Assembly (NCBI GenBank): GCA_050250895.1
Contig: JBFWNU010000004.1
Coordinates: forward strand, 622,934 to 686,933
DNA length: 64,000 nucleotides
From: Vulcanimicrobiota bacterium
GTDB lineage: Bacteria; Vulcanimicrobiota; Xenobia; Xenobiales; JADMJV01
Reading direction: 5' to 3'
Shown here: positions 38,588 through 55,005 of the stretch, one piece after another
Layout: every line of letters begins with the position of its first letter
Position numbering within the stretch: position 1 is the stretch's first letter
Program-made: the position numbers and the translations under genes
Notes under the pieces: model-generated
What the model was told of the DNA's origin: nothing
Database searches by the model: none
The model's input: only the letters and a program-made list of their open reading frames with translations

Positions 38588-39039
38588 GCCTCTTCCATCT
38601 CTTGGGCGAGCTTGGCCTTTTCGTCTTCGAGCTTGTCAGGCGTCTCTTGTTCGACCTTGGCCAGATCGAGCTGTTGGCCATGCAGTTTCTTCTGGGTGGC
38701 GATGCGCTCGGCCACCACTTCTTGCAGGCGCATCAACTTCTTATAGGCGTCTTGGGCCTCGGCCGGAGGGTTCATCGAGGAAAGGTCGCGACCGACCTCG
38801 TTGACCTGCTGCTCGAGGGTGTCGAAGATATCGATGGGATCTCCCTCGAAGATGTCACCCAGGCTATTCCAGGCGGCCACCAGCGTCTCATGTTCGCGAG
38901 TCATCTGCTCGGGTGAATAGGCCACCGCTGCCGGGGTCGGCGTGGCGCCCGTCTCGCCACCGGTGGTGGAGGACGGATTGTTGCAACCGATCAGGGCAAC
39001 GGTCAATAAGGCAATGCAAAAGCTAAAGTACTTGGTCAT
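38491..39039 (-). CDS. coiled-coil lipoprotein
   Basis: Lipobox LIGC; helical charged body. Confidence 0.75.
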   Translation of the reverse strand: MTKYFSFCIALLTVALIGCNNPSSTTGGETGATPTPAAVAYSPEQMTREHETLVAAWNSLGDIFEGDPIDIFDTLEQQVNEVGRDLSSMNPPAEAQDAYKKLMRLQEVVAERIATQKKLHGQQLDLAKVEQETPDKLEDEKAKLAQEMEEAQSKIDALSKEFGDLTTAEGDASSSEATPAAE

Positions 39040-39040
39040 G

Positions 39041-39794
39041 TCAAGCCCTTCTAGGACTCTCCTCGAGACCCTGCAGGACGCTCGCCAAACGATGCCAGTG
39101 GCCCGCTACCGCGTCGCGCGAAAGCCCCGTAAACTGGGCGTCGGCCGTCTCGACCACCCACCAGGCAAGGTCATGGGACTGGCCCACGTCGACCGAACAG
39201 AAGGGCACCCCCAGGCGTTGGGCCGCCTGCTCGGCCAACTGGTGGATGGCCGCGCTCTCGGCCGCGGCTGCGGCTGTCGCTTTTGAGCAGCCGTCCTGCC
39301 AGGCGCTCCAGCTCCTCGGGAGTATCGGCCACACAGGCCTTCCACCCCTCGGCTTTGAGCGACTGCACGCTGCCCTTCACGAAAACCGGATAGCCCAGCT
39401 CGTCGGCGGCTTCGAGGCAGCCTTGGACCGAATCGGCCCAGGCGGTGGCCGGAGTCAATCCGTTCAGGTGCGGATAGGCAAGATGCAACTCCATGGCCCG
39501 GCGGTGCTGCTCGGGCGTATTGGGCAACCAGAGTCCGAGATCGGCGGCGGCCTGGTAGATCGCTTCATAGCGCTCGACCGTGGGAATATATCCGAGCCAT
39601 ATGGCCGGCCTGGCCGGCCCCCTGGCGAGATGCGCCAGGGCTCCTTCGGCGTCGCCGCAGCGCGAGAAGTCGGGCTCGATGAAGCTCACCTCGAAACCCG
39701 CCCACCGAGCCGCCCTGGCCGAGGCCTCGAGGTCCCGCTTGCTGGCCGAAGGGGGCATCGCTTCGACCGAGTCGACGAACAGAATCGGCTTCAC
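39041..39794 (-). pseudogene. R2K/DUF4343-type ATP-grasp protein, frameshifted and apparently internally deleted
   Basis: N-part (GYPVFVKGSVQSLK) ends near 39260; C-part (VPFCSVDV...WWVVETADAQF) is in another frame; the central RxF segment expected for the family is absent. Confidence 0.65.
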
Positions 39795-39889
39795 AGTCAG
39801 CAGTCTACCACACAGGCGAAGGAGACTGTACGGGTCGATGTGGAAGGGCAGTGACAGTTACTGTCACTCCTGCAACCTAAGCTCAGACT

Positions 39890-42616
39890 ATGTTCTTTCC
39901 CGAGCTCATCCGACTGGCCGAATCCGAACGCACTCGTCAAAAGTGGGTCTGGCTTCCTTACCCTGAATTGAAATGGAAATTGGGCGAGCGACTGCTGCTG
40001 GCCGGGGTGAACTGGCTCAACCTTCGTTTCGTAACCCCCTTTGAGGTAGCCCTCGAGATGGCCGCCCCCACCCTATTGGCTCAGGGAGTCAATCCCAAGC
40101 CCGAAGAACTCGGGCCCAGCCTGGTCGACAGGCTGCTCGGGCCGGGGCGTTTTCAGCCCCTGATGGCCCAGCCGGGCATGGCCGAGGCCCTCTGGGCAAC
40201 CCTCCAGGAGTTGCGCCGCGAGGGGATTCGTCCCCAACAACAGCCCGAGGGCGAGCTGCGCCAACTACACCAGGCCTATCTCGACTATCTCGAACAGAGC
40301 CGGCTGGCCGACCGCTGGCGCATCTTCGAACTAGCCCAGCAGGACAGCCCGATCGACCCCCATGACCTGGTGCTAGAGTTTCCTCATCCGTGGTCGACCC
40401 TGGAAAGGAACTTCCTCGACCGCCTGGGCGGCCAACGAGTGACCACGACCCAATCTAGGCTTACCCAGTTGCAGATGCCCGGGGCCGCGGTCGATCTCGT
40501 CAGCCTGCCTACCCCTCAACTAGAGAGCGAACGGTTGCTGCAGAACCTCGAGCAAGGCCCTTTTGACCAATCCGAGGTGGTGATTGCCGACCCCGCTCTG
40601 GTGCCCCTGGTGCGCGACCGGTTGGTGGCGCAAGACCTGCCGTTCACCCTCGAGATGGGCTTTAACGTATCCCTGTCGCGACCGGGCCGGGCCCTGGCCG
40701 GCCTGCTTTCATGGGTCGAGCACGATTTCTCGGCCTACGACCTGCGCGAGCTCTTCTCGGCCAACCTGCTCGATTGCCCCCTACCCTCGGGAGTCGCCTG
40801 CTGGCTGCTCGAGTCTTCAGGAGCCACCTGGGGCAAGGCAACCTATCGGGCCAGTCTCGAGGGTCTGGCCTTGCGCTTTCGCGCTCGGGGCGAACGCGAG
40901 CCGGACCGCCTGGCCGAGTGGACGAGCCGGGCCGAGCAGGCTCTGGGACTGATCGGCTGGGTAGAAAACCTGGCCGAGACAATCGACCGGCCCGAGGATT
41001 TCGGTGATTGGGTCACCCGACTGGCCCGGTTGCTCGGGCGAGTGCCCGGCGAGCCCTCCGCCCGGGCACGTCTGCAGCGAGCTCTGGGTGAACTGTCGCG
41101 GCTCGAGTCGGCGCACTGGACCCGCAGCGAGGCCTTGCGTCGAATTCGCCAGTTGCTGGCCCAACTGCGCCACGGCGGCTCGCGTCCGATGGCCGGGCAT
41201 GTCCATGTCACCGACCTCGACCGCTGTGGGCTGGGAGGCCGACCGCGAACCTTCGTGGTGGGTCTGGGTGACGGTGGTTGGCTACCCAGCCCGAGCGAGG
41301 ACCCGGTGCTGCCCGACGACCAGCGTGAGCAACTGGGGATGCCGCTGGCCAGCCAGCGCGCCTCGCAGCGATGGGCCATCTGGCTGGAGCGTCTGGCCGC
41401 CCTGGAAGGACAGGTGGTTCTGAGCCGAAGCCGGCGCGACCTGGCCGGCGACGAGCTACCGCCTTCGCGCCTGTTCAGCGCCGCCGAGCGACTCTATGGC
41501 AAGGCCCGAGAAGAGTCTGGACTGGCCAGTCTGGGCGCCTGGTGGCTGGCCCATCCCCAACAACCAGAGCTAGCCCTGGCTACCTTCGCCAACCTGCGCG
41601 CCGGGGCCGAGGCCGACGAAGCCCGCCAGAGCGAGCGTTTCACCGAATTCGACGGACTGGTGGTGGGGGCAGCCGGACACCTCGACCCCCGCCAGAACGG
41701 ATTGCCCGTCTCGGTAAGTCGCCTGCAGGTCCTGGCCACCTGCCCCTTCCGCTACTTCCTTGAGCAGGGGTTGGGTCTGAGTGCGCTAGAAGCCCGCCGC
41801 CCCCGTCCTGACGAGTGGCTGGATGCGGCCACCCGTGGTACGGTGCTCCATCAGGTGTATGCCGACTACCATCGCCATCTACGCCAGTTGGGACGCAAGC
41901 CCCACCAGGATGACTATAGTCTTTTGCTGGAATATCTGGCCGCCGAACTCGAGGCGACCCGGCTGCGGTTGCCCCCCTTCTCGCCGGCCCTGGAAGAGCG
42001 AGAGCGACGCGCCTTGCGCCAGGATCTCGAGCAGTTCCTCGAACTTGAAATCCTCTACCCCGGCAAGCCGGTGGGGCTCGAGGTGGGCTTCGGCTTGCCC
42101 GACCTCGACGGGGAAGAATTGGCCCGTCTCGAGCCCGTGACCCTCGACCTGGGCGACGGTCTGCGATTAGCTCTGCGCGGGCGCATCGACCGCATCGACG
42201 AGGTCGAGGACGGCTATCGCGTGATCGATTACAAAACGGGACGTTCGCTGGGCGTCTCTCAGGGGGCCATCCTGGACCGCGGCCGCCTGCTGCAACACGC
42301 CCTCTACAGCCTGGTGGTCGAGCAACTGGTGCAAGAGACCGTGGTGGGAAGCCTCTATTACTTTCCTACCACCCGGGCCAAGGACGCCCACCACAGCTTC
42401 GATCCGGTCGAGCCAGAGCGCCTTCGCCGAGTGCTGAGGTTGGTGCTCGAGCCGGTCCTGGCCGGCCACTTCGCCCACAGCCACGAACCCAAAAAAGACT
42501 GCACCTATTGTGACTTCAAGCAGGCCTGCTCGGCTCACGACCAGCAGGCCAACCGGCGCAAACTCGAACAAGACCAGCGCCTGGCCGCCCGCCGGGACCT
42601 GCTGGAGGAACGATGA
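39890..42616 (+). CDS. addB: AddB-like PD-(D/E)XK nuclease subunit
   Basis: SVSRL..CPFRYF, GRIDRID, IDYKTG, CTYCDFKQAC Fe-S staple. Confidence 0.85.
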   Translation: MFFPELIRLAESERTRQKWVWLPYPELKWKLGERLLLAGVNWLNLRFVTPFEVALEMAAPTLLAQGVNPKPEELGPSLVDRLLGPGRFQPLMAQPGMAEALWATLQELRREGIRPQQQPEGELRQLHQAYLDYLEQSRLADRWRIFELAQQDSPIDPHDLVLEFPHPWSTLERNFLDRLGGQRVTTTQSRLTQLQMPGAAVDLVSLPTPQLESERLLQNLEQGPFDQSEVVIADPALVPLVRDRLVAQDLPFTLEMGFNVSLSRPGRALAGLLSWVEHDFSAYDLRELFSANLLDCPLPSGVACWLLESSGATWGKATYRASLEGLALRFRARGEREPDRLAEWTSRAEQALGLIGWVENLAETIDRPEDFGDWVTRLARLLGRVPGEPSARARLQRALGELSRLESAHWTRSEALRRIRQLLAQLRHGGSRPMAGHVHVTDLDRCGLGGRPRTFVVGLGDGGWLPSPSEDPVLPDDQREQLGMPLASQRASQRWAIWLERLAALEGQVVLSRSRRDLAGDELPPSRLFSAAERLYGKAREESGLASLGAWWLAHPQQPELALATFANLRAGAEADEARQSERFTEFDGLVVGAAGHLDPRQNGLPVSVSRLQVLATCPFRYFLEQGLGLSALEARRPRPDEWLDAATRGTVLHQVYADYHRHLRQLGRKPHQDDYSLLLEYLAAELEATRLRLPPFSPALEERERRALRQDLEQFLELEILYPGKPVGLEVGFGLPDLDGEELARLEPVTLDLGDGLRLALRGRIDRIDEVEDGYRVIDYKTGRSLGVSQGAILDRGRLLQHALYSLVVEQLVQETVVGSLYYFPTTRAKDAHHSFDPVEPERLRRVLRLVLEPVLAGHFAHSHEPKKDCTYCDFKQACSAHDQQANRRKLEQDQRLAARRDLLEER

Positions 42617-45600
42617 ACGACCAATCCCGGCGCGACCAGATCGCAAACGATCTCGACCTCAATCTTCTGGTAGAGGCCTCGGCCGGCACCGGCAAGACCC
42701 ACTGCCTGACCGCCCGGCTGGTGAACGGATTGGTCTGCGGTCGCTACCAAGCCGGCAACACCGCGGCCGTAACCTTCACCCGCAAGGCCGCCGCGGAACT
42801 GCGCTCGCGAGTTCGCCGCGAACTGGAAAAGACCGGGGACCAGGCGGCCCTGGCCCAACTCGACGGGCTCTTCGTGGGCACCATTCACTCGTTCTGCGCT
42901 GGCTTGCTGCGGGCTCACCCGGTCGAGGCGGGGCTCAGTCCCGGCTTTCGCGAGCTCGAAGAATACGAGGATGTCAGCCTGCAACGCGAAGAGTTTCAAC
43001 GCTATCTGGAAGAGGTCCCGGGTCGTGGCTTGCAGGCCGAGCTCGCTCTGGCGGGTGCCCGCCCCGAGCAGTTGCTGGACGGCCTGCACACCGTGTGCGC
43101 CAACGGTGAAGTCGAGTATCCCGTCAGGCCGCGCCCTCGACCGGATTGGGAGGCGAGCTGGTCGGCCACCGAAGAGTTCGCCTGGCAACTGCAGCTACCC
43201 GAATGGCCCGACGACAAGGTCGACGAAAAGTATCTGACCATCGTAGGCCGTCGCTTTCTCAACAAACTTCGGGCCGCCCGCCCGGGGCTGGCCAATCTGT
43301 TGAGGCTGCTCGAGCCGTGGGAGCGCCAACCTCAGGTCTTGCAGCGGTTGTGGGGTGAGAACAAGACCGAGCGACGAGCCCGCTTCGAACCCCAGCTCGA
43401 GCGGGTCAACCGCTTTCGCGAAACTCAGGTGCTGCCGTTTCTGGCGGAGTGGAGGGCCTATCTCTACGCCGTCTGCATGCCCCACCTCCTCGAGGTGCGA
43501 GCGCGACTAGCCGAGAGCCGAAGGCGACTGGCGCTGGTGAACTATCACGACTTGCTGATGCTGACCGCTCGCATGCTTTCCAGCCAACCCGCAGTGCGGC
43601 CACGACTGCGCCACCGCTTTGCCCATCTGCTGGTCGACGAATTCCAGGACACCGACCCCCTCCAGGCCGAGGTTCTGTTCTGGCTGGCTTCAGACGACCA
43701 GAGTGACGATTGGCGCCAATTGCGCCCTCGCCCCGGCTCGTTGTTCATCGTGGGCGACCCAAAGCAATCGATCTATCGATTTCGCCGGGCTGATATCGAG
43801 ACCTATGAGCTGGTCAGTCGAAAGCTACGCGACAGCGGTGGCAAGAAGCTTTCGTTGACCACTTCCTTTCGCTCCGTGCCGGCCATCTGCGAATGGGTCA
43901 ACCAGACCTTCTGCAGTCTACTCACAGGCAACGGGCAGGCCGTCTATTCACCCCTCGAGGCCCATGAGGCGGGCCAGGGTCAGGTGCTCACCCTGTCCGA
44001 GCAGTGCCATCGATTCCAGGATGTGACCAGGCGAGAGTCGCAGCGAGTGGCCGAGCTCATCAGTTCGATGGTCGCGTCGGGGCAACGCGGATATGGCGAC
44101 TTTTTGTTGCTGACCTGGCGTCGCCGGGATTTGCGCAGCTATGCTCGGGCCCTCGAAGAGCTCGGGATCCCCGTCGAGGTAACCGGGTCCCCGGTGCCGA
44201 TCCAGGGTCCGGTGGCTCTGCTTTTCGACTTGTTCGGGGTGTTGGCCGACCCTCGCAACAGCATCGCCGTGGTGGGCCTGCTGCGCGGTTCGTTGTTCGG
44301 GCAAAGCGATGAAGACCTCTACGGGTTTCATCAGGCCGGTGGGCATTTCGTGCTGGGCCACGAGCAGCCCGGGAGGGTCGGCCAGCTGCTGGCGCGGCTA
44401 CAGGCCTGGCGCAACCTGGTCGAGCGCCAGCCTCTGGGAGCCGCCCTCGAGCGGGTGCTGGAAGAATCGGGACTGATCGCCCTGGCCAGCGCCCAGGGAG
44501 CGGCCACCGACCTCATGCAATGGGTGACCCGGTTTGGCGCCGCGGCCGAAAGCGGACGTTCCCTGTCTGAGCTACTGCTCGAGGCCCAGGCGGCCGACCC
44601 CCCCGAGAGCAATCCAGGTCAGGCCCCAACGGCCGCCTCGGTGCGCTTGATGAACCTGCATCAGGCTAAAGGCCTGCAAGCCAGAGTAGTGTTGCTCCTG
44701 GCTCCCACCGGCGGCTTTCCCGTGAGGGTGGCTCATCGGGTCGTCCGCGGGCCCCGAGGCGCGCTGGGCTACCTGCGCCTGGGAAAATATCGCCCCCTGG
44801 CCCAACCGCTGGACTGGCCCAGCCACGAAGCCGAGGAGAAGGTCTTTCTTGAGGCCGAACGCAAGCGTCTGTTGTACGTGGCCGCCACCAGGGCGAAGGA
44901 AGTTCTGGTGGTCTCTCGCTGGGCCGGCGAGAAATACGACGAGCTGCGGCCCTGGCTGCCGCTCAACCCCTACCTGGCCGACTGCGCCGAGATTGCGCGG
45001 CCCACTCAGCTGACAGTTTCGCCTACCCCGGTGCTTGACTCCAGCGGTCTCGCGGCCCTGTCCCGACGCCTCGAGGCCCGGACTCGCCTGGCCGAGCCCG
45101 GCTGGCGACGCAGTTCGGTGACCGGCAGTCTCGATGAAAGTCGCTCTCTGCCTCTTCCCGAGTCCCTATCCCAGGCAGAGCGGCCTGATAGCGGAGCCGC
45201 CTGGGGCAATCTGCTCCACCGTTTGCTCGAGCAGCTGGTGCGACGTCCCGAACTCTCGCGCGCCGAGTTGGGTCGCCTGGCCCACTGGTACTGCTTCGAG
45301 ACCCCCGAACTCGATCCTTATGTTCCGCTGGCCCTGGACACCCTCGACCAACTTCGCCAGACCGACTTCTGGTCACGACTGCTGCGCTCTGGCCGGCGCC
45401 TGACCGAGGTGCCTTTTGGCGTGCGTCTGGAGGAAAGCCCCCCCCGGTTGGTGTTCGGCGTCCTGGACCTGGTTCTCGAAGGAGAAGCGGGCTGGGAAAT
45501 CATCGACTACAAGACCGACCGCCAGCGGCTCGAGGGGCTGCTCGAGCGCTATGCCGATCAAGTTCGCGAGTACGCCCGCCACTGGACCGACCTGGTCGAC

Positions 45601-45705
45601 GAACCGGCCTTCGCCGGGCTCTATGGCCTGCGCGAGCAGCGTTTGAGCGGCGACCTGCGCGGCGGCGCAGGGCCGGCGGGCCCAGTTGAGAAGAACAGCC
45701 CGTGA
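42613..45705 (+). CDS. addA: AddA UvrD-type helicase/nuclease
   Basis: ASAGTGKT, VDEFQDT, VGDPKQSIYRFR, HQAKGL, LLYVAATRA, IDYKTD. Confidence 0.9.
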   Translation: MNDQSRRDQIANDLDLNLLVEASAGTGKTHCLTARLVNGLVCGRYQAGNTAAVTFTRKAAAELRSRVRRELEKTGDQAALAQLDGLFVGTIHSFCAGLLRAHPVEAGLSPGFRELEEYEDVSLQREEFQRYLEEVPGRGLQAELALAGARPEQLLDGLHTVCANGEVEYPVRPRPRPDWEASWSATEEFAWQLQLPEWPDDKVDEKYLTIVGRRFLNKLRAARPGLANLLRLLEPWERQPQVLQRLWGENKTERRARFEPQLERVNRFRETQVLPFLAEWRAYLYAVCMPHLLEVRARLAESRRRLALVNYHDLLMLTARMLSSQPAVRPRLRHRFAHLLVDEFQDTDPLQAEVLFWLASDDQSDDWRQLRPRPGSLFIVGDPKQSIYRFRRADIETYELVSRKLRDSGGKKLSLTTSFRSVPAICEWVNQTFCSLLTGNGQAVYSPLEAHEAGQGQVLTLSEQCHRFQDVTRRESQRVAELISSMVASGQRGYGDFLLLTWRRRDLRSYARALEELGIPVEVTGSPVPIQGPVALLFDLFGVLADPRNSIAVVGLLRGSLFGQSDEDLYGFHQAGGHFVLGHEQPGRVGQLLARLQAWRNLVERQPLGAALERVLEESGLIALASAQGAATDLMQWVTRFGAAAESGRSLSELLLEAQAADPPESNPGQAPTAASVRLMNLHQAKGLQARVVLLLAPTGGFPVRVAHRVVRGPRGALGYLRLGKYRPLAQPLDWPSHEAEEKVFLEAERKRLLYVAATRAKEVLVVSRWAGEKYDELRPWLPLNPYLADCAEIARPTQLTVSPTPVLDSSGLAALSRRLEARTRLAEPGWRRSSVTGSLDESRSLPLPESLSQAERPDSGAAWGNLLHRLLEQLVRRPELSRAELGRLAHWYCFETPELDPYVPLALDTLDQLRQTDFWSRLLRSGRRLTEVPFGVRLEESPPRLVFGVLDLVLEGEAGWEIIDYKTDRQRLEGLLERYADQVREYARHWTDLVDEPAFAGLYGLREQRLSGDLRGGAGPAGPVEKNSP

Positions 45706-47348
45706 GCGACTCCCTGCTGGTGGACGCCCTGGAAGCGGCCGAGACGCTGGCCAGCCCTGTCACAGGATTCCTGCCAACGAAGGCCCCCCTGGTCGACCTG
45801 CCGCCACCCTTCTTAGAACTCTCGGACGCCTGCGCCCAGCTACCCGGGCGCTACCACGGCCAGGACTACGATTGTCGACCCTGGCTAGACCAGCAATTTG
45901 GCCGCGAGCGTCCCGAATGGTTGCATGCCGCCTCCGGGGCCGATGAGCATCTGCGCCATAACCTGATGACCAAAACCAGCCTGCTCTGCCACGCCTACCG
46001 CTGGCAAGGCATGCCCACTCCGCCCGAGAATTATCAGCTGAAGACCATCCGATTGCCGCCTGGGCTAGAGAGCCTGTGGGCTCACCTGGCCGAGCGGATG
46101 ATGGTGCCGCGAGTGGGAATCTTTTATACGATGGTGGCCAACAATTGGCGCCTGTCGGGGGTCGAGCCGGGCCAGGCCTACGACGTCGAACAACTCCGGG
46201 ACGAGGCCATCGATCTGGTTCACAGCTGGCTCAACCCGCCCTTGCATGAAGAGCTGCGCACCTTTGTCTCGACGGCTCTATGCATCGAGGCAAGAGGAGC
46301 CAAGATCCTCAACCACATCCAGCAAGCCTGCCACTGTGTGCTGCGCCAAAATGCCCAGGAGGCAACCTATCACCTGACCTTCCTGGCCGCCACCATTCTG
46401 TCGATCAACTCGATCTTCAATCGGGGGATCAAGAAGGCTCGGATTCATCCCGACCACTTCTTGCGCTTCGTCCAGCCCACCATGATCTGGCTGCTCGATC
46501 ACGGCGACGGTCCTCTCGAAGGAGCCAGTGGTCCCCAAGCCTGTACCTTCCAGTTGCTCGACAGTTTTCTGGGCGTCCCCCGTCAAACCGCTCTGGGCGA
46601 GATGATCGAACAGGCCCGCCGCTACATGCTGCCGGGACACCGAGCCTTGCTGGAGAAGTTCGACCGAACCGGCCCGGTGCTCAGAGAGTTTGTTCAGCAG
46701 AGCGACGCGCCTCGTCTGCTCGAAGCCTACAATCGCTGCCTGAAACTGATGCAGGCCTGGCGTACCAGCCACCAGAAACGCGGCGCCATGTATCTGGAGG
46801 GAGAGGCCCAACACTACGTCTCTACCGGTCTGGTGGTCAAAGACCCGGTCGACCGCGCCGAGCACTTCGAGCGCACCATGGAGGAGCATATCGTGGCCAC
46901 GCGCGGGCAGACCCTCGCGAACCCCTGGGAGGGGCACGAACACGGCCTCGACTATCTCTTTCGTTTTCTCACCCCGTCCCAACGAGAAAAGCTCGCCCTC
47001 AAGACCGAGGTCTTTGCCATGGCCGCGGGCGAAACCATTCTCGCCCAGGGCGACCTCTTTCCGGGCCTATTCAGTCTCAAATCGGGTACAGCCGCGGTAG
47101 TCAAGCGCATCCAGGCTGAAGAGCGAGTGGTCGACCGGCTCCAACCCCATCAGATCTTTGGCGAGATGTCGCTAATCGAGAACCTGCCGGCTTCGGCCAG
47201 CATCGTGGCCGAGGTCGACCTGGAAGTCGTGCAGGTCTCGCTAGAGACCGTCTATGACCTGATCAACGAAAATCGAGAGGCCGAGGGGGACTTCTATCTG
47301 GCCCTGGCCCAGTTGCTCTCGCACCGCCTGCGAAACCGATTCAGTTAG
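45702..47348 (+). CDS. indoleamine 2,3-dioxygenase-like heme domain fused to a C-terminal cyclic-nucleotide-binding domain
   Basis: GFLP, HAYRW, NNW, IEARGA, GASGPQ, RRYMLPGHR, WRTSH (proximal His); C-terminal ILAQGD...FGEMSLIE. Confidence 0.8.
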   Translation: MSDSLLVDALEAAETLASPVTGFLPTKAPLVDLPPPFLELSDACAQLPGRYHGQDYDCRPWLDQQFGRERPEWLHAASGADEHLRHNLMTKTSLLCHAYRWQGMPTPPENYQLKTIRLPPGLESLWAHLAERMMVPRVGIFYTMVANNWRLSGVEPGQAYDVEQLRDEAIDLVHSWLNPPLHEELRTFVSTALCIEARGAKILNHIQQACHCVLRQNAQEATYHLTFLAATILSINSIFNRGIKKARIHPDHFLRFVQPTMIWLLDHGDGPLEGASGPQACTFQLLDSFLGVPRQTALGEMIEQARRYMLPGHRALLEKFDRTGPVLREFVQQSDAPRLLEAYNRCLKLMQAWRTSHQKRGAMYLEGEAQHYVSTGLVVKDPVDRAEHFERTMEEHIVATRGQTLANPWEGHEHGLDYLFRFLTPSQREKLALKTEVFAMAAGETILAQGDLFPGLFSLKSGTAAVVKRIQAEERVVDRLQPHQIFGEMSLIENLPASASIVAEVDLEVVQVSLETVYDLINENREAEGDFYLALAQLLSHRLRNRFS

Positions 47349-48345
47349 CCACTCCAGGCTCGGGACGCTGGCCCAGAGTGCGCAGATAGTGCCTGGCCCC
47401 CCAGCACAGGACCGCGACACCCAACTGCATCAGGATCACGATCACTCGATCGTCGAAATTCCTCGGTCCCCAGACGCCCGCACACTCGGCTGTCGCCAGG
47501 CCCAGCCAGACCAGGGCTAGAAAGGCGTAGTAGGCCTGTAGCAGCAACCTCGCAAGGTCCTTGCCGGTGCCTGCCACCACCGACAACACCAGACCCAGCC
47601 CACAAATCAGGGCAACGCCGAGAGCGAAGTCCCGGTCCCCAGACCCGAACGTATTGCTGATAGCCAGGCCCAACAACAACATCCCGCTGGAAGGAACCAG
47701 AAATCGTCGTAACTTGAAGACGACCGGGCTGACCGCGCCCTGAGGCAAGGCCAGGCTCTGGTCAGGTTGAGCCAGGCCTCTGGCCAGCAGTGCGAACAGC
47801 TCATAAATGGCCCGGAACTGCTTGACGCCGAAAGCCGACGATAAGAACCAGCGCTCGGCCGTGAGTTTTCCGTCCTTCAGCTCGGCACCCGGCAGACGCG
47901 GCATGGCATACAGCAGCGCCGTACGGCCTTCGCCGGCGAAGAACTCTAGCACCTCGGACCGACTCTCGCCCTTTACCCAGAAGGCCTGGTCCATCTCGGC
48001 ATCGCCCAGCACCAGGTCGTCGCGCCGGCCGGCCTTCTGCAGCCCGGTGAGCACACCTTCGTTGCGAAGATGCAGGCTCCGTGGACAGTTGGGCCCCAGG
48101 TCAAGGCTGGCTTTGAACTCATACCAGCTCCCTTTCTGCTGCCTGACGTGACGCAACCCGACCGAGAACACAAGCCCTTCGAGCCTGCCCTGAGCGCGGC
48201 TGTCGTCCACCATCGTCAAGCCCACCTGACTGGCGAACTGCTCGAGTGCTCGCAACCGTCCTGCATAGAAGGCTCCCCCTGCCTGAACGAAGTTCAGGAT
48301 CAGCAGCCCGACCAGGGCGCCGAGAAAGAGCAAAAGGGGGTCCAT
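47341..48345 (-). CDS. hypothetical membrane protein
   Basis: N-terminal TM, GDAEMDQAF motif, four C-terminal TMs. Confidence 0.7.
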   Translation of the reverse strand: MDPLLLFLGALVGLLILNFVQAGGAFYAGRLRALEQFASQVGLTMVDDSRAQGRLEGLVFSVGLRHVRQQKGSWYEFKASLDLGPNCPRSLHLRNEGVLTGLQKAGRRDDLVLGDAEMDQAFWVKGESRSEVLEFFAGEGRTALLYAMPRLPGAELKDGKLTAERWFLSSAFGVKQFRAIYELFALLARGLAQPDQSLALPQGAVSPVVFKLRRFLVPSSGMLLLGLAISNTFGSGDRDFALGVALICGLGLVLSVVAGTGKDLARLLLQAYYAFLALVWLGLATAECAGVWGPRNFDDRVIVILMQLGVAVLCWGARHYLRTLGQRPEPGVAN

Positions 48346-48448
48346 TTGTCAGCTTTCCCGGCGGCCGGCCGCCAGGCCTGCCCGGCTCTGGTCAGGACGC
48401 AGGTGATCCGTCCTGAAGAGCGAACATCAATGGAACAGGAGGGTATCT

Positions 48449-48823
48449 ATGGATAGCATCGGTAGTAGCAGTTCCCGAGGGGCAGGACCCTCCACCTCTG
48501 TCTCGACAAGTCGCGACGCGGGTGCCCCCGCTGGGGCCACCCCGGCGGCCACTCCTGGTTCACCCCCTGGCGAAGTGGACAGCGCCAAGATCTCCTCGAG
48601 CGTTACCAGCAGCGAAGCAGGGGCCTCCACCAGCCTGATGTCAGGTCTCCTGTCGTGGGCCGACTCTTCGACCGACAAAGCCGGCGAAGCGAAGGCCACT
48701 GGCTCGACCACGCCAAGCACGGCTGGTCGAAGGGCCGAGATGCTCAAAGAACTCCAAGAGTTCACCAAGAAGGCCATCGAAGAGATGCCCGCCGACGACA
48801 GTCCGTATCGCAGCCGAAACTAA
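48449..48823 (+). CDS. low-complexity Ser/Thr/Ala-rich hypothetical protein
   Basis: AGGAGG upstream; followed by a terminator. Confidence 0.6.
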   Translation: MDSIGSSSSRGAGPSTSVSTSRDAGAPAGATPAATPGSPPGEVDSAKISSSVTSSEAGASTSLMSGLLSWADSSTDKAGEAKATGSTTPSTAGRRAEMLKELQEFTKKAIEEMPADDSPYRSRN

Positions 48824-48841
48824 GGTTCTGGCCGAACGCAG

Positions 48842-48872
48842 AAAGCCAACCCCTGACAGGGTTGGCTTTTTT
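48842..48872 (+). terminator. intrinsic terminator
   Basis: AAAGCCAACCC-ctgaca-GGGTTGGCTTT running into a T tract. Confidence 0.8.
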
Positions 48873-48896
48873 GTATCCGTCGTCGCCCTCCTGGTC

Positions 48897-49340
48897 ATGC
48901 TCGTCCTGGCGTCCGGCCTCGGGTTCTGGCGGAATCGCCAGCCAGAGCCTGACCTGAGCATCAGCGGCGTCAAGCCAGGCATGACCGAGCCCGAGGTCGA
49001 GGCGCTGTTGGACGGGGCGGTACTAAAGCGCGAAACCGCCACCGATGGCATACGAATGCTGAGCTTCCAGGATCCGACCGGACAACCCGTCTGCATCGAT
49101 CTTGACCAGGATGGCCGCGTCAAGCAGGTCTTTGGCCGCCTATGTCTCGAGGGGCGGACGGCCGCTAGCGACCGACTCGATCTCGCTGAGGTCATCCAGC
49201 ACCTTGAACCCAAGCTCGGTCCACCCGACCGACGGATTGGGAACGGCCCCCAGTTCGTAGTCTACTACCCACGGTATGACTTGCTTCTGGCCCAAGATAG
49301 CGCGAACTGGATTGCGCGTCTAGGGGGTGACGAGCCCTAG
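48897..49340 (+). CDS. SmpA/OmlA-like motif protein, paralog 1 (5' end possibly lost)
   Basis: ISGVKPGMTEPEVEALL; 5' part nearly identical to 49422..49928. Confidence 0.65.
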   Translation: MLVLASGLGFWRNRQPEPDLSISGVKPGMTEPEVEALLDGAVLKRETATDGIRMLSFQDPTGQPVCIDLDQDGRVKQVFGRLCLEGRTAASDRLDLAEVIQHLEPKLGPPDRRIGNGPQFVVYYPRYDLLLAQDSANWIARLGGDEP

Positions 49341-49371
49341 AGGGGATGGTGACGGACGGCCTGTCGCTCGT

Positions 49372-49385
49372 CTTCCAGCTGGAAG
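49372..49385. repeat. dispersed palindrome CTTCCAGCTGGAAG (intergenic copy)
   Basis: Exact 14-bp palindrome, also at 50659, 54586, 54699, 55885 and 61241. Confidence 0.85.
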
Positions 49386-49421
49386 TTCCGGCCAGGCAGA
49401 GCCCTGTGCTATAGTCAACCT

Positions 49422-49928
49422 GTGACCCGCCGCATCCACCCTATCGTCGCCCTGCTCGCCGTGCTCGTCCTGGCGTCCCGCCTCGGGTTCTGGCTGAATC
49501 GCCATCCAGAGCCTGACCTGAGCATCAGCGGCGTCAAGCCAGGCATGACCGAGCCCGAGGTCGAGGCGCTGTTGGGCGAGAGGGTGTCCGAGGAGCAGTT
49601 GCCGGACGACGCTCGGCTGTGTGCCTTTCAGGACAACACCGGTGGCTTGCTGGGGGTCTACTTTGATCAACGGGGCCTGGTCACGGGTGCCTTCGGACGG
49701 CTTTGTGTGGACGGCCAAACCGTGAAAGCGACTGGCGAGGACCTCAGACTCATAGCCAGGCAGCTTGAGCCCCGTCTCGGCCCACCCGACGGTCAGCGGG
49801 GTGGTTCTGAACTGTTCGCGATTCGATACACCCGCTATCGCCTGCTTCTGGCGCAGAACACCGTCGACTGGAGCGCCTGCCTCGGTTGTGACGATGACGG
49901 CTACGAATACGAGCCGTTCCAATGGTAG
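49422..49928 (+). CDS. SmpA/OmlA-like motif protein, paralog 2
   Basis: N-terminal TM then ISGVKPGMTEPEVEALLG. Confidence 0.7.
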   Translation: MTRRIHPIVALLAVLVLASRLGFWLNRHPEPDLSISGVKPGMTEPEVEALLGERVSEEQLPDDARLCAFQDNTGGLLGVYFDQRGLVTGAFGRLCVDGQTVKATGEDLRLIARQLEPRLGPPDGQRGGSELFAIRYTRYRLLLAQNTVDWSACLGCDDDGYEYEPFQW

Positions 49929-49966
49929 CTCTTTACAATCGCGCCTATCGCAACCAATATTACAAC

Positions 49967-50881
49967 ATGGGTAGCCATTTTACTCGAGCAGATCGGGCGG
50001 ATTCTGGACAAGCACTGCTATGACGAGGTGAGCAGTCTCGAGTTGCCTCCGGACCGCGAGCTGAGCGAGACAACAAGCTCATGTGGTTGGTCGGTCTGTG
50101 CCACCTCCTCAACGATGACCCCGAATCGACTCTCGCAGAACTGCTTCGAGCGCGCGAACACGAACTGACCCTGGCCGAATGCCTGAACGAAGTAGGCCGC
50201 CACTCAGAGGCCCTCGAGCAAGTACTCCAACTCGAACCGGAAGAACCCAGGCTCGTAAGAGACCTCGCCTGGGCAAACTTCAGGCTAAAAGAGCAAGCCA
50301 CCACCCGAATGCAGATCGACAGGGCCCTGGCTCTTGACCCCGGTGATAGTTTCGCCTGGTAGATTCGGGCCCTGATGAAGGTTGAAGACGATGATCCGGA
50401 AGCCCTGAGCGACTATGACCGGGCCCTCGACCTGGCTAGAGACAGTAGTGACATCCGTGCCTGTCGGGGGATGTCTCTGTATCGGCTTGGCAAGCCGCGG
50501 CAGACGCTCAGCGAACTCACCAGTCTGTTGCAGCAGTGCCCCGACCACCAGCGCGCACTGCGCTATCGGGCCAGGCTTCGACGCAGCCTCGACGATCTTC
50601 CAGGGTGCATCGAAGACTACCGCAGGGCCGTGGAGCTAGAATCCGACGAAGACCTCGTCTTCCAGCTGGAAGAAGCCGAGGAGGAGCTATACTCCCGGCG
50701 ATTCAGAACTCCGGATAGTCGAGGTCAACACAAAGCTGCGGCAGGTCGACCTCGCGGAGCACGAACTCACGACGCCCGTCGGCATAGACCCCGATCGAAA
50801 GATCAAGGTCAGTGCAGTGAAGAACCACGCTCGGGGCTCCGGGTCGGTCGAGCGTTGTTCGCCGATCCTGCATCACACTGA
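49967..50881 (+). pseudogene. TPR-repeat protein interrupted by an in-frame TAG (50360-50362) and a probable 5' frameshift
   Basis: ORFs 50081..50362 and 50375..50881 share a frame and read as continuous TPRs (RALALDPGDSFAW*IRAL...DYDRAL). Confidence 0.7.
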
Positions 50882-51983
50882 GCGCCACTTTGACCTGCTC
50901 GGCCGAGTGTTGGGCCGACAGCGGGCCCGGACTAGCCTCGAGCAGAAGATGGCCATGTTGCTCGAGTTGGTCGCCCACCACCTGGACGCAGCGGTCGCCT
51001 CGAAAATCGACTCGCACCCGCCCCCAGCAGACCCTGTCCTCGGTCGGCTGTTCCGGCTGCCCCAGGCTCGCGTACACATCGCCTCGACTCATCCCAACCT
51101 TGAGGCCGTTGACCGTTGGCCCCTCCCCCACAGGGGTCATACAGCGCTGGCAGGTCGAGCCACCGCCTCCGACCAGTAAGAAACTCTCGACTCTTTCGTC
51201 GGAGTGGAAGGCGACGAGGCCGACTCTCCCGTTCCAGAAGTAGTCGTGCCGCTGGCCCGGCATATAGTCAAAAGCCAGGGTAGTCATCACCTCGGCCACC
51301 CAAGAACGAGAAGCTCCGCTCTCCAGAAGGGTCTCGCCGGCCTCAAGACGGCTCCCGTCCAGGCTGATCACCTGATAGGTGTCGTAGCGAAAGCCGATCT
51401 TCGGTCCGTTGTCCGTGTCGGACGGCAACTTGTAGATTGTTTCGGCAGCCATGCCTAGATGCATTCCGTTGACTCTCAGCTCTCGGTCCGCTTCCAGCAG
51501 GCCCTTAGTGGGAGTGGCGACGCGAAGGGCGGGGACCGACACAATCGTTGCGCCGGCCTCGCACGGTGGCTCGGGCCGGGCCACTGCTTGCTGGGACCGT
51601 TCCAGTACCGTCAGCCTATAGACACGTCGATAGGCCGTCTGAGTGAATTCCAGCCGGACCCGCTTGGCGGTGGTGCCCTCGAGCAAACTGTAGATGCGCC
51701 GGGCGTCTGGAATGTCGGGGCCGAGAAAGCCCCGCTCGGGATAGAAGCGATGCAGCTCTAGCTCCACCGCCCCCCCGTCGTGACTGGCGGCTGGCCAACT
51801 GACCTCGCGTTCCAGGGTCAACTGCTGGTCAGGCCAGGCACAGACAGGCTCATCCCGGCTGCTCATACGTTTGCCCCAGTAAAGGGCAGGCTTCTCGCCC
51901 AGAAGATAGCTCCGTTCGCGAAGGTAGTGATGCGTCTGCTCGACCTCGATCACCAAGGTGTTCACCTGTCCAAAGACCTCCAC
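50703..51983 (-). CDS. hypothetical protein with two SmpA/OmlA-like (VNGxxxGM) repeats
   Basis: VNGMHLGM and VNGLKVGMSRGDVYASLGQPE. Confidence 0.6.
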   Translation of the reverse strand: MEVFGQVNTLVIEVEQTHHYLRERSYLLGEKPALYWGKRMSSRDEPVCAWPDQQLTLEREVSWPAASHDGGAVELELHRFYPERGFLGPDIPDARRIYSLLEGTTAKRVRLEFTQTAYRRVYRLTVLERSQQAVARPEPPCEAGATIVSVPALRVATPTKGLLEADRELRVNGMHLGMAAETIYKLPSDTDNGPKIGFRYDTYQVISLDGSRLEAGETLLESGASRSWVAEVMTTLAFDYMPGQRHDYFWNGRVGLVAFHSDERVESFLLVGGGGSTCQRCMTPVGEGPTVNGLKVGMSRGDVYASLGQPEQPTEDRVCWGRVRVDFRGDRCVQVVGDQLEQHGHLLLEASPGPLSAQHSAEQVKVALSVMQDRRTTLDRPGAPSVVLHCTDLDLSIGVYADGRREFVLREVDLPQLCVDLDYPEF

Positions 51984-52501
51984 TCAAGAATCTGGCCGTT
52001 CTCGACGGTGACACGCCAGACATGCTCCTGGCAGACTCCAAAGGTCGACCCGCTGCGCTGAGGAGAGACTCGAACCAGGTCGTGGCGCACTCCACGCTGT
52101 TTTGCCTCAGCCAGAGCCAGTCGCCTGGCCTCCCGCCCTTCTCGCAGGACCTCGGCGGCGTTCTCCGGGTCTACCCTGACAAACTCGACCCCGGCATTCG
52201 AGCATCGGTCTTCATTCAGCTTGATCCGGCCTAACGTCAGCAGAGCGACGAGGTCCTGGAGGGCCGCGAACAGGCAGCCTCCCCCTCGATTGACGTGCAG
52301 CAGCAACGGCCCCGTGCCGTAGCACAGCGACACGACCGCCCCGGTCTCCTGGTCGAGCCTGGCGCGCCACCTCTCGTTGCAGCCCTCGATTACGGTGCCA
52401 TGCTCGTCTTCCAGCAACCGGACAGCGGCGACTTCGTGCCCGGCGAAAACCTCGACGAACTCGGCGACCAGCAACCGGGCTTCTTGTTCAGTCAGCGACA
52501 A
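51962..52501 (-). CDS. hypothetical protein
   Basis: GGAGG 7 nt before TTG at 52501; overlaps the upstream gene's stop. Confidence 0.55.
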   Translation of the reverse strand: MSLTEQEARLLVAEFVEVFAGHEVAAVRLLEDEHGTVIEGCNERWRARLDQETGAVVSLCYGTGPLLLHVNRGGGCLFAALQDLVALLTLGRIKLNEDRCSNAGVEFVRVDPENAAEVLREGREARRLALAEAKQRGVRHDLVRVSPQRSGSTFGVCQEHVWRVTVENGQILEWRSLDR

Positions 52502-52994
52502 CTTGTTCACCTCCGTCTTGGCGATGGTCGGCGCGGGTGCGTAGGGACGGGTCAAATGGACCTGTGCGGACCCAGCCTGTCGTGGCCGCGCTGCAGATAT
52601 GGTGAGCACAAAGACCGCACTCAAGCTCGAACCAATCAGACAGGCCGAAGACGACCTTCCTTTGCTGATGCGGCATCCAGCGGCCCAGTTCTTCTTCGAG
52701 AAGGCGTCCCAGGTACCCGGTCTCACTTACAACCTGGCGAGGGTTGCGGTTGGTGAGCCAGGGCAGTAGCGCCCGCAGTTCGGGATAGAGAGTCAGGACC
52801 TTGTCGGGCTCCACAGCGGCGAAGTACAACGCCAGGCGGTGGGCGGTTGCGAACAGGGTCCGGTATTCGTCGAGGTAGCGGAGTCTTCGCTGTTTGCGAC
52901 GCTCCAGGGCTCGGTCTTTGCGATGGCTGCGCGATTCCAGGCTGCGGCGCCTGGCGCCAGAGAGCACTCTTTTCGGTCTCAGGGCAGTCCGCAT
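52488..52994 (-). CDS. hypothetical basic protein
   Basis: ORF from ATG 52994; Arg-rich N-terminus, CGLC..H. Confidence 0.5.
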   Translation of the reverse strand: MRTALRPKRVLSGARRRSLESRSHRKDRALERRKQRRLRYLDEYRTLFATAHRLALYFAAVEPDKVLTLYPELRALLPWLTNRNPRQVVSETGYLGRLLEEELGRWMPHQQRKVVFGLSDWFELECGLCAHHICSAATTGWVRTGPFDPSLRTRADHRQDGGEQVVAD

Positions 52995-53128
52995 CTCGTT
53001 GCCGCCCGATGCGGTGGGCCTCGTAGTTCCTCCATCATAGCGTACCGCTCGGGCCATTCCAACCGGTTGCACCGACGGCCGACGCGATGCGAGGGTCTAC
53101 CCCAAGCTACAGCGAAATTCTAACCAGA

Positions 53129-53836
53129 ATGAAAGGGCGATGCGGAGCTTGCGGCCGCGAGAAGAAGACAAAGGGTCCTCACCATCACGATGAAACCTGG
53201 GCCTGCGGAAAGTGCCTGGCCACCGGCAAAGCCGTGGCCGGCGACCCCAGCCGGCAAAACTTTGGTGGCTTCGGCCCGGGGCCGTATCTGGCCTATTGGG
53301 ACGAGCTGCGCACCTGCCAGCACTGCGGAGATGAGTTTGTCTTTAGCGGCGCCGAGAAGAGGTTCTGGTACGAGGACCGCGGATTCATCACTCATTCCGA
53401 GCCGACCGGCTGCCCCGGTTGCCGGCGAACCCTGCGCCGTCGCCACCTGGCCCAGAGGCGCATTGCCGAGCGGCTGCCCAAGCTCGACCCCAAGAACTGG
53501 ACCCAGCTGGCGGAGCTAAGCGACCTGTGCTGGCGGGCCGGCTCGAAGCGCAAAGCCCTGGAGTACCTGCGGCGGGCCAAGAACGTCTGCTCTGAACCTG
53601 CCGCTCGCAGACGCCTGTTAAAGCAGCTCGAATTGGTCGAGTCGTGCGAGGTCGAGCTCAAACCCGGTGGGCAGTTCCGCACGGTTCTGGCAGTGCGCGC
53701 CGACCTCGCCTGGTATCGCAAGCGTCCGGACTGGGTCAAGTGGGCCGTCGGCAGGGCTCGTCCGTTTCTGTCCAAGCGGGGCCTCGAGGTCCTCGAGAGC
53801 GTCGTCGAGGAGTATCACGCCAGCTTTGGGTCTTGA
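53129..53836 (+). CDS. zinc-ribbon (zf-trcl-like) protein with TPR-like helix pair
   Basis: CQHCGDEFVFSGAEKRFWYE...PTGCPGCR. Confidence 0.8.
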   Translation: MKGRCGACGREKKTKGPHHHDETWACGKCLATGKAVAGDPSRQNFGGFGPGPYLAYWDELRTCQHCGDEFVFSGAEKRFWYEDRGFITHSEPTGCPGCRRTLRRRHLAQRRIAERLPKLDPKNWTQLAELSDLCWRAGSKRKALEYLRRAKNVCSEPAARRRLLKQLELVESCEVELKPGGQFRTVLAVRADLAWYRKRPDWVKWAVGRARPFLSKRGLEVLESVVEEYHASFGS

Positions 53837-53876
53837 CTTTGAGCCTCTTTTCAGCGGAGGGGGTTAGTCTGACCGG

Positions 53877-54434
53877 GTGATGATGCAGAACTATGGCGTT
53901 CGTGGCTTTGGCGTTGGCTTCATGAACGGCACCTACCACGGACGGAACGTCGATTCGGCCGGCACTAGCGCCTCGAAAGTCGAGACCGAGGGCGTGCTCT
54001 CGCTCAAAGAGATGCGAGTGCAGGATGTCGACGGCCACGCCAACCTCGATGTCGGTTTCGTGCCCAACCACTACGGCAAGATGACCCTTTCCATTCTCAA
54101 CCGCGGCCAGGATGCCGATCCCGAAAACTACGTCGAGGCCAACATCGAACTCACGGTAAGCGATGCCAAGCTGCAGGGCCGAGGCTCGTTGCTCAAGCCC
54201 GAGCACGGCTTTAACGCGGTCACCGTGACCGACCGGGGCGACAACGTGCTGATCCGCGCTCAGCGGGGCGACGAGACCCGAGAGTTCATCTTCAGCAACG
54301 GCTACATCTCAAACCACGCTGGCGATGTGCGAGTCGCCTTCGAGAAACTCTACGATCCCGACCACCCCATCGACCTGATCGACGCCGCCGATTTCATCGT
54401 CGTTGGCGGCATCACCGTCGACAAGAACACCTAA
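53877..54434 (+). CDS. hypothetical protein
   Basis: GGAGG upstream; GC3-rich codons; ends in FIVVGGITV motif. Confidence 0.7.
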   Translation: MMMQNYGVRGFGVGFMNGTYHGRNVDSAGTSASKVETEGVLSLKEMRVQDVDGHANLDVGFVPNHYGKMTLSILNRGQDADPENYVEANIELTVSDAKLQGRGSLLKPEHGFNAVTVTDRGDNVLIRAQRGDETREFIFSNGYISNHAGDVRVAFEKLYDPDHPIDLIDAADFIVVGGITVDKNT

Positions 54435-54455
54435 ACCTCGTCACCGCGGCGAGTC

Positions 54456-54724: not shown

Positions 54725-54935
54725 GCCGGCCCAGAATATTGCGATACCTTAACATTCTCAAATTCGGCATTGCGCCCGAAGGCATCTCGGTCTCAAATCC
54801 AGCCAGAGACGGCCCTGGAAAGCGCCACGAGCCAGAGAACCCGTTAGCAGATTGATCGAGTCATTTTTGACGGGATCTCCTGCCTCACGGCATCCTGGAA
54901 ACCCAAAAACACCGTAACCACGCCATTTCGACGCA

Positions 54936-54964: not shown

Positions 54965-55005
54965 AGGATCATTCCTTGATTCTTTTTCAGCCCGGAGGTC
55001 TTCCC

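Follow-up and report, generated by a model that had tools for sequence, protein, structure and literature searches.

A bacterial IDO-like heme domain fused to a CNB-like domain with a non-canonical phosphate-binding cassette

Architecture and Fold of the Fusion Protein

The window analyzed here is a 64,000-nucleotide stretch of a Vulcanimicrobiota bacterium genome (assembly GCA_050250895.1, contig JBFWNU010000004.1, positions 622,934 to 686,933). At 45702..47348 of this window an intact open reading frame (ORF) of 548 residues, with a GTG start codon, encodes a protein (P0001) that fuses an IDO-like domain to a C-terminal domain of the cyclic-nucleotide-binding (CNB) type; the gene and all features within it lie on the forward strand. 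Its GC content at third codon positions (GC3) is 0.77, equal to that of the neighboring genes. Pfam places the IDO family (PF01231) on residues 18-370 (45753..46811; 96.1 bits against a cut-off of 26, E-value 2.6e-27), with the fold running to about residue 405, and cNMP_binding (PF00027) on residues 441-524 (61.1 bits against a cut-off of 27.5, E-value 1e-16). From the secondary structure of the model, the CNB fold extends over residues 416-544 (46947..47333), comprising N-terminal helices, a β-barrel and C-terminal helices. Pfam reveals no recognizable output domain in this short form. Both domains deviate from their families exactly at the residues that define the ligand, which makes the protein worth bench work.

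An AlphaFold2 (AF2) model of P0001, built from a 23-sequence alignment, has a mean predicted local distance difference test score (pLDDT) of 89.4 and a predicted template modeling score (pTM) of 0.84. The top solved-structure matches of this model in Foldseek are all human IDO1 or IDO2 (template modeling score by target, TM, of up to 0.82; E-value approximately 1e-15), at approximately 18% sequence identity to human IDO1. In the Atlas, a Crp/Fnr-type CNB cluster matches the CNB part in structure (TM 0.71), and the best PDB sequence matches of this part are the CNB domains of PKG and PKA. The two-domain architecture proposed by a first-pass annotation, made from the sequence letters, is therefore borne out by both Pfam and Foldseek. 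The IDO motifs that it listed are likewise all present at the checked positions: GFLP (22-25), HAYRW (97-101), NNW (147-149) and IEARG (195-199) in the N-terminal part, followed by FLRFVQ (253-258), GASGPQ (274-279), RYML (307-310), WRTSHQKRG (353-361) and VSTG (373-376). The CNB domain likewise contains FGEMS (486-490) and PASAS (496-500), and the codons were verified. These features predict that P0001 is an IDO-family protein of the cytoplasm that carries b-type heme. Databases label its relatives "cyclic nucleotide-binding domain-containing protein" or "CRP/FNR family transcriptional regulator"; the latter label is wrong, since no DNA-binding domain is present.

Nearly all work on IDO concerns its immune and metabolic roles in animals, and little has been done to characterize bacterial IDOs. 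No description of an IDO–CNB fusion was found in the literature searched, and the statement of the first-pass annotation that it knew of no characterized example still stands. Bacterial IDOs as such have been on record since 2007, according to a passage of PMC1821046. The folds in P0001 are known; their combination is uncharacterized and functionally suggestive.

A Heme Pocket Lacking the Tryptophan Carboxylate Clamp

A profile of the P0001 IDO domain and 31 stand-alone bacterial relatives was aligned to PDB sequences, and matched human IDO1 chains with an E-value of approximately 1e-31. The printed chain index was taken as the native number plus 3 (the proximal His is index 349 in 2d0t); the native residue numbers of IDO1 (e.g. 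His346) and the roles of its residues are those that we assume for the human enzyme. Column tallies were made from a MAFFT alignment of the family, comprising 100 sequences for the IDO columns and 59 for the CNB columns. H357 of P0001 (codon 46770..46772) aligns with the proximal His346 of IDO1, in the motif LRSYH, and is the predicted proximal heme ligand, as a manual alignment had previously suggested; this column contains His in 86 sequences, Asn in seven, Tyr in six and Arg in one. R354 aligns with Arg343 (Arg in 99 sequences, Lys in one), and S276-G277 align with Ser263-Ala264, where the family has Ser in 86/100 and Gly in 91/100, respectively. Elsewhere in the pocket, F188 falls on Phe163, A192 on Ser167, F141 on Tyr126 and F253 on Phe226.

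The position of IDO1 Arg231, the Arg of FFSVLR, is occupied in P0001 by Q258 (codon 46473..46475); we take Arg231 to be the residue that binds the tryptophan carboxylate. The alteration of this Arg, also read by the first-pass annotation, is a family trait: the column contains Gln in 81 sequences, Lys in six, Arg in five, His in four and other residues in four, and all five sequences with Arg lie inside a subclade without the proximal His. P0001 thus does not possess the substrate-carboxylate Arg of tryptophan-cleaving IDO and TDO enzymes. These alignments suggest that P0001 keeps the residues needed to hold and use heme, binding itself being a prediction, and that it has no clamp for an amino-acid carboxylate, a feature shared with most of its bacterial family. 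As the clamp is absent, a new substrate class is possible.

A flexible loop, EGEAQHYVSTGLVVKDPVD (residues 366-384; 46797..46853), is the lowest-confidence stretch of the model (pLDDT 55-73) and carries a conserved S374-T375-G376. T375 is Thr in 73/100 sequences and G376 is Gly in 84/100; in the subclades without the proximal His, the loop has been deleted. It is likely the counterpart of the IDO1 JK loop (GTGG), an equivalence of position only, as HMMER left this stretch unaligned. Overall, P0001 resembles the IDO family in its fold, proximal His, Arg partner, Ser-Gly/Ala heme loop and flexible Thr-Gly loop, but differs from IDO1 in its low identity, in the exchange of Arg231 for Gln and Ser167 for Ala, in its C-terminal CNB-like domain, and in the presence of a TDO in the same genome.

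This TDO is canonical and its gene lies directly beside a kynureninase-like gene on contig 14, the kynureninase match being below the model cut-off. The genome also contains two genes of the PF04199 cyclase/formamidase family, and a single IDO-family gene, that of P0001. Bacteria have either TDO or IDO, which suggests that one suffices for tryptophan catabolism (Ball et al., in a passage of PMC4191572). The co-occurrence of TDO and an IDO-like protein therefore makes the fusion protein unlikely to be the housekeeping tryptophan enzyme. No kynurenine-pathway gene (formamidase or kynureninase) was found among the scanned neighbors of P0001, and a housekeeping role in this pathway was rejected, given that the TDO and kynureninase-like genes are located elsewhere in the genome.

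A Conserved CNB Pocket without the Cyclic-Nucleotide Hallmarks

The phosphate-binding cassette (PBC) of the CNB domain, FGEMSLIENLPASAS (47157..47201), is non-canonical. In HMMER alignments to PKG and PKA regulatory domains, residues F486 to S500 align with the canonical F-G-E-...-P-R-x-A-T, and A497 (codon 47190-47192) falls on the cassette Arg of P. falciparum PKG ("eprsat"). The replacement of PRxA by PASA had already been noticed in the first reading of the sequence and is correct. A second deviation lies in the β2-β3 loop, where Phe453 (codon 47058..47060; "gdlfpglf" versus "GDYGDVLY") takes the position of a Gly that co-evolves with the cassette Arg. In PKA RIα, as described in part of PMC2246266, Arg209 coordinates the cyclic phosphate and co-evolves with Gly169, which packs against its guanidinium, and an R-to-K exchange at Arg209 costs approximately ten-fold in affinity. 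P0001 thus has neither the cassette Arg (Ala497) nor the β2-β3 Gly (Phe453) of cNMP-binding CNB domains.

Arg is found at the cassette position in none of the 59 family CNB domains, which have Ala (52), Thr (3), Ser (2), Val (1) or a gap (1). The Gly169 column is more varied (Arg 23, Phe 21, Tyr 5, Gly 4, other 6), and position 490 is Ser in 56/59. The best-conserved stretch of the whole protein is residues 487-499, of which 12/13 positions are invariant across 21 clade members with 42-68% identity; this near-invariance indicates that the CNB pocket is under strong selection and is not decaying. Nor is the deviation organism-wide: the other CNB domains of the same genome retain the canonical Gly and Arg (G...R-S/T-A) in 4/4 aligned, making the change specific to P0001.

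The source genome has an unusually rich cyclic-nucleotide repertoire, combining several canonical CNB proteins with 30 class III cyclase domains, the latter detected by a genome-wide six-frame PF00211 search of its 9.5 Mb. With cyclic-nucleotide signaling this abundant, the non-canonical pocket of P0001 is the more telling. None of the 30 matches falls within the contig range of the window, in line with the earlier remark that no cyclase is visible there.

P0001 shares with the CNB domains of PKA, PKG and CRP a β-barrel with flanking helices and the F-G-E that opens the cassette, but its Ala497 and Phe453 group it with the non-canonical PBC classes (CooA, CprK, FNR and others) in the classification given in part of PMC2246266. 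According to the same passages, CNB families with non-canonical cassettes take other ligands, such as heme in CooA and chlorophenolacetate in CprK. A comparable case is the PKA regulatory subunit of trypanosomatids, where, in the sections of PMC10959531 that deal with the cassette, loss of its Arg goes with a switch to nucleosides and replacement retargets the pocket to an uncharged ligand. That subunit, unlike P0001, gains a Glu at the Ala202 position; P0001 has Ser490 here, and a nucleoside ligand is therefore not proposed.

One alternative is that P0001 is a cyclic-nucleotide-gated tryptophan/indole dioxygenase, with cAMP or cGMP from the cyclases of the genome switching the oxygenase. The CNB fold with its retained F-G-E and the 30 cyclase matches are consistent with this, as is the Arg found at the β2-β3 position in 23/59 relatives. 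The latter include three Myxococcota proteins whose genes adjoin a cyclase gene, in a single lineage with three loci and the cyclase gene directly downstream on the same strand. An Arg at this position could stand in for the missing cassette Arg and reach the phosphate; if the relocated Arg works in this way, the longer members of the family described below may still read a cyclic nucleotide, an ability that the window clade, with Phe at this position, would have lost. P0001 itself has Ala in the cassette and Phe at β2-β3, hence no Arg at either place, against the ten-fold affinity loss reported for even the R-to-K exchange at Arg209 (PMC2246266, in part). The four canonical CNB domains of the same genome argue in the same direction, and no cyclase was found in the window or among the ORFs scanned at the loci of the six closest relatives. 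Cyclic-nucleotide gating of P0001 is doubtful because the equivalents of Arg209 and Gly169 are both missing; we consider this alternative quite unlikely, and the ligand of the CNB-like domain in the window clade is probably not a cyclic nucleotide. The proposal of the first-pass annotation, a second-messenger-gated oxygenase, hence survives in part: the best model in general terms is still an oxygenase under the control of its CNB domain, while the identity of the messenger as a cyclic nucleotide does not hold up well.

A Sparse Family in Which the PASA CNB Domain Accompanies Enzymes

P0001 and its relatives form a sparse, multi-phylum family. A word-indexed search returned 59 matches, 42 of them with both IDO and cNMP_binding (P0001 included), and an exhaustive search of 50%-identity representatives returned 79 proteins at an E-value below 1e-30. 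Among 68 representatives analyzed by Pfam, 33 are IDO–CNB proteins and 35 lack the CNB domain, mostly comprising IDO alone (approximately 405-480 residues). Twenty of the 33 are long forms of at least 717 residues with a C-terminal extension, and nine of the 33 give weak methyltransferase matches. Other fusions also occur, as P0095 joins an IDO domain to a flavin monooxygenase, and the Atlas contains a bacterial Cyt-b5–IDO cluster.

When a long-form profile was searched against PDB sequences, IDO and CNB matches dominated and the C-terminal domain was left unresolved. The extension was then analyzed by aligning 22 sequences that comprise CNB and extension (A5); 21 of these are stand-alone CNB-methyltransferase proteins. 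Pfam detects cNMP_binding in all 22, Methyltransf_25 in 12, Methyltransf_12 in 11 and Methyltransf_20 in ten. An AF2 model has a pLDDT of 81.8, and its Foldseek matches are small-molecule methyltransferases: 3ocj, DsyB, MfnG, family-2 O-methyltransferases, MitM, Fur6, SgvM, SibL and RosA. The extension of the long forms is accordingly a class I S-adenosylmethionine (SAM) methyltransferase of the small-molecule type.

The stand-alone CNB-methyltransferase proteins are approximately 490 residues long and have no IDO domain. Their consensus cassette, FGEMSFLExxPASAxVIA, features the same Arg-to-Ala change. They thus share the CNB subtype and Arg-less cassette with P0001, which for its part has no methyltransferase. 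Judged by these comparisons, the PASA-type CNB domain is a branch of its own that is usually partnered by a methyltransferase, and it is evidently from the stand-alone family that the IDO fusions took their CNB (and methyltransferase) part. In the main text of the 2007 CNB classification (PMC2246266), the word methyltransferase occurs zero times. The branch is well conserved and lacks both hallmarks of cNMP binding. It accompanies enzymes instead of outputs that bind DNA or act as kinases, and identification of its ligand would extend what is known of the chemistry of this ancient sensor fold. A split version of the system, with an IDO gene beside a stand-alone CNB-methyltransferase gene, was also considered and rejected, as an IDO-domain profile found none in those loci.

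A FastTree phylogeny of the IDO domains, midpoint-rooted with no outgroup, places P0001 in a clade of short IDO–CNB forms. We take this window clade to be the shortened descendant of an ancestor with three domains (IDO, CNB and methyltransferase), its methyltransferase having been lost. Two sister subclades, comprising 13/100 sequences, have replaced the proximal His with Asn (seven sequences) or Tyr (six) and have lost the STG loop. The Asn subclade is also without the Ser-Gly loop, and P0014 likewise lacks the proximal His. Both His-less subclades retain the CNB pocket motif.

These sister subclades bear on a second alternative, in which P0001 is a non-catalytic heme or small-molecule sensor, or a pseudoenzyme, that detects O2, NO, CO or a metabolite and signals through protein contacts of the CNB-like domain. 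That relatives without the heme ligand preserve the rest of the protein, including the CNB motif, is consistent with such a role, as are the missing tryptophan-binding Arg and the existence of IDO-like myoglobins (in passages of PMC4191572 and PMC1821046). The association with a large signaling protein in Myxococcota and the variable neighborhoods of the family, which are those expected of stand-alone regulators, also point this way. The short form, however, has no recognizable output domain; moreover, the window clade keeps the pocket residues relevant to catalysis rather than to binding alone (R354, the S-G loop and the STG loop), and an enzyme suits better the methyltransferases and flavoproteins found in fusions and operons. 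We regard a purely sensory role, which would include the heme gas sensor raised as an option by the first-pass annotation, as unlikely but possible.

Distribution across Genomes

The source genome (9.5 Mb, 17 contigs, 63% GC, 99.6% complete) is one of few sampled in its phylum that carry the gene. In a same-phylum sample, 7/401 genomes have a match at an E-value of 1e-10 or below, the source genome (G000) included. Five of the seven matches are full-length (G000, G052, G068, G092, G104), and two comprise the CNB part only (G040 and G080, E-value approximately 1e-11). The gene is present in 3/15 genomes of the same family, and the lone genome of the same genus (98% complete) has no match. Genomes of the window clade with full-length matches were placed by the genome search in the family or order of the window, and only six loci of this clade were found among species-representative genomes. 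The deposited names of the metagenome-assembled genomes of the closest relatives (L024-L029) conflict at phylum level (Selenomonadaceae, Burkholderiales, Vulcanimicrobiota, Bdellovibrionaceae) and are unreliable. Remoter IDO–CNB loci are found in Thermoleophilaceae/Actinomycetota, Myxococcota/Bradymonadia and Acidobacteriota, according to record titles, and in metagenome contigs.

Gene Neighborhoods of IDO–CNB and CNB-Methyltransferase Loci

Twenty IDO–CNB loci were viewed (the window, L018-L023, L028, L104-L112, L172, L174 and L177), with selected ORFs scanned within approximately 4-6 kb, many of which have no Pfam match. The contexts are unrelated and mostly housekeeping or metabolic. The closest relatives neighbor, variously, a transglutaminase with TonB/ExbD; SMC; GNAT; a histidine kinase with GrpE-DnaK-DnaJ; and an MscS-type mechanosensitive channel with MarR and a P-type ATPase. 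The scanned neighbors at L022 have no family match. At L021 (4838-6982, reverse strand) the IDO–CNB gene is broken by a TGA codon and its C-terminal half leads into an ABC-transporter ATPase, which replaces the CNB domain; this copy, annotated elsewhere as an ABC protein, is decayed or rearranged and accompanies an intact second copy in the same genome.

In an acidobacterial locus (L112), an O-methyltransferase (PF00891), the IDO–CNB gene and an FAD_binding_3 flavoprotein form an operon with 4-nucleotide overlaps at each junction; the best NCBIfam matches of the flavoprotein are a geranylgeranyl-reductase family and QhpG, both below cut-off. At L172, an MFS transporter and a SufS/EgtE-like aminotransferase lie upstream, and a methyltransferase and a SnoaL-like protein lie downstream on the opposite strand. 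This class V aminotransferase was considered as a kynureninase and rejected, its best matches being to SufS/EgtE-type models with the kynureninase model not among the matches.

In three Myxococcota loci, the long-form IDO–CNB-methyltransferase gene is directly followed, on the same strand, by a giant gene of Pkinase-AAA_16-GAF-Guanylate_cyc architecture encoding approximately 1770 residues or more, with a class III cyclase domain (L106 10621-15930; L107 ~6411-11714; L109 ~3174-8558). The IDO proteins of these loci share 54-68% identity and the cyclase proteins 65-79%; they represent one lineage and are therefore counted as one conserved cyclase association rather than three.

Among the stand-alone CNB-methyltransferase genes, those in Leptospira-type loci (L116 1383-4234, L117 694-4607, L118 6722-9473) have a gene for a PF09995 MpaB/Lcp-type oxygenase directly upstream, and at L117 a geranylgeranyl-reductase-like flavoprotein gene lies downstream. 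The PF09995 family includes the b-type-heme rubber oxygenase Lcp, as stated in a passage of PMC5522427. A preprint on cytochrome P422 that mentions DUF2236 has no relevance here. At these three loci the sensor-methyltransferase module is paired, for a second time, with a heme oxygenase. In four further loci of 39-42% GC (L185, L189, L194, L202), a GHL10 glycosidase-like gene (~6617-7964) is found upstream of the CNB-methyltransferase gene, and one other stand-alone locus has an MlaE-ABC fusion upstream. One of the four GHL10-type loci also has a GUN4-like gene downstream.

The neighborhoods offer little to a third alternative, raised by the first-pass annotation, in which P0001 is a Pycsar-type anti-phage effector that depletes tryptophan or another aromatic metabolite upon a phage-triggered cyclic nucleotide. 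Like Pycsar effectors, P0001 fuses a CNB-type domain to a second, potentially harmful activity; PADLOC gives weak matches of residues 429-546 to the CNB region of PycTIR and TIR models (E-values 5e-8 to 1e-4), and the patchy distribution in the phylum, including absence from the same-genus genome, would fit a defense gene. The PADLOC matches are, however, confined to the generic CNB fold. Unlike Pycsar effectors, P0001 has no partner cyclase in the window, no defense genes among the neighbors scanned and no phosphate-binding Arg in its cassette, and its N-terminal enzyme belongs to a metabolic family. The only cyclase neighbor across the 20 loci is the giant signaling-type protein of Myxococcota, not a small dedicated cyclase. 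The survey of homologs that the annotation had suggested thus did yield an adjoining cyclase, in this one lineage, and revealed no defense island. A defense system was rejected after PADLOC analysis of P0001 and nine neighbors gave generic fold-level matches only; matches to GajB and Cas4 correspond to the helicase-nuclease folds of AddAB-like proteins. We consider an anti-phage role highly improbable.

A Ligand-Regulated Heme Oxygenase as the Favored Model

The reading that we favor, and which we hold to be evenly balanced between right and wrong, is that P0001 is a heme oxygenase regulated by a ligand, with a substrate that is indole-like or otherwise not an amino acid. The IDO domain would bind heme via H357 and carry out an O2-dependent oxygenation. 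Its substrate would contain an electron-rich C=C bond, as indole-type compounds do, and would be held otherwise than through an amino-acid carboxylate. The PASA-type CNB domain would bind a small ligand, the existence of which is presumed from the conserved pocket. In the model, the CNB helices directly follow the last IDO helix (residues 385-401) and the flexible STG loop, such that ligand binding, relayed through the CNB helices, may make the heme pocket accessible or shut it off. The wider family context, in which methyltransferases and flavoproteins are fused or adjacent and the CNB-methyltransferase module lies next to MpaB/Lcp, points to small-molecule chemistry. A bacterial IDO with a ligand-sensing domain of its own would offer a simple system in which to study how a heme dioxygenase is controlled allosterically.

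Several observations weigh against this model. The proposed relay by way of the STG loop is conjecture. G487-E488 are kept, and together with the genomic cyclase domains and the one lineage with an adjoining cyclase this makes a cyclic nucleotide possible as the ligand. In the His-less relatives, at least, function does not depend on heme ligated by His, and the case for "oxygenase" as a function of the whole family is weaker for it. The links to methyltransferases, flavoproteins and MpaB/Lcp come from distant relatives (approximately 30-45% identity) and few loci, and the neighbors of P0001 in its own window (addAB-like genes and a membrane ORF) are uninformative about function.

A broader proposal, which we put forward tentatively and think rather unlikely as a whole, is that the PASA CNB domain is an unrecognized sensor class that gates IDO-like and MpaB/Lcp-like heme oxygenases together with SAM-methyltransferases. 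Under this proposal the long forms would have moved the Arg to β2-β3, and in Myxococcota the cyclase partner would complete an axis from cyclic nucleotide to the oxidation of indole or other aromatics. The window clade would have lost the Arg and come to sense an uncharged metabolite, and P0001 would be the first bacterial IDO with allosteric gating.

Immediate Context of the Gene in the Window

Upstream of the fusion gene, and on the same strand, lie an addB-like gene (39890-42616; 908 residues, PD-(D/E)XK nuclease, matching PDDEXK_1) and an addA-like gene (42613-45705; 1030 residues, UvrD helicase with a C-terminal nuclease), whose stop and start codons overlap. Their matches to AddA, AddB and RecB models fall far below the equivalog cut-offs, and the two are hence described as a divergent helicase-nuclease pair, which is context rather than part of the system. 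The start codon of P0001 overlaps the stop codon of the addA-like gene in the sequence GTGA (45702..45705), suggesting co-transcription and translational coupling in this genome only. A conserved operon with addAB was rejected, as AddAB lies upstream in 0/6 loci of the closest relatives. Downstream, a convergent ORF on the reverse strand (47341..48345; 334 residues, hydrophobic, no family match) overlaps the end of P0001 by 8 nucleotides at its 3' end. A scan of 39000-49000 for promoters and terminators gave nothing above shuffled sequences, and a search for sequencing runs listed no RNA run and two DNA runs, each with a small share.

Further upstream is a signaling cluster, comprising a GGDEF-EAL protein (29710-31365, reverse strand), a multi-PAS hybrid histidine kinase with a receiver domain (31401-34319, reverse strand) and a homolog of type II secretion system (T2SS) protein F (34322-35542, forward strand). 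On the other side of the fusion gene, a run of ORFs without a Pfam match (48641-52726) precedes a treble-clef zinc-finger protein (53087-53836) and a 453-residue HNH endonuclease-domain protein (54976-56337). The GC3 of the region 48641-56337 (0.63-0.73) is somewhat below that of its flanks, and it may be a mobile or foreign patch.

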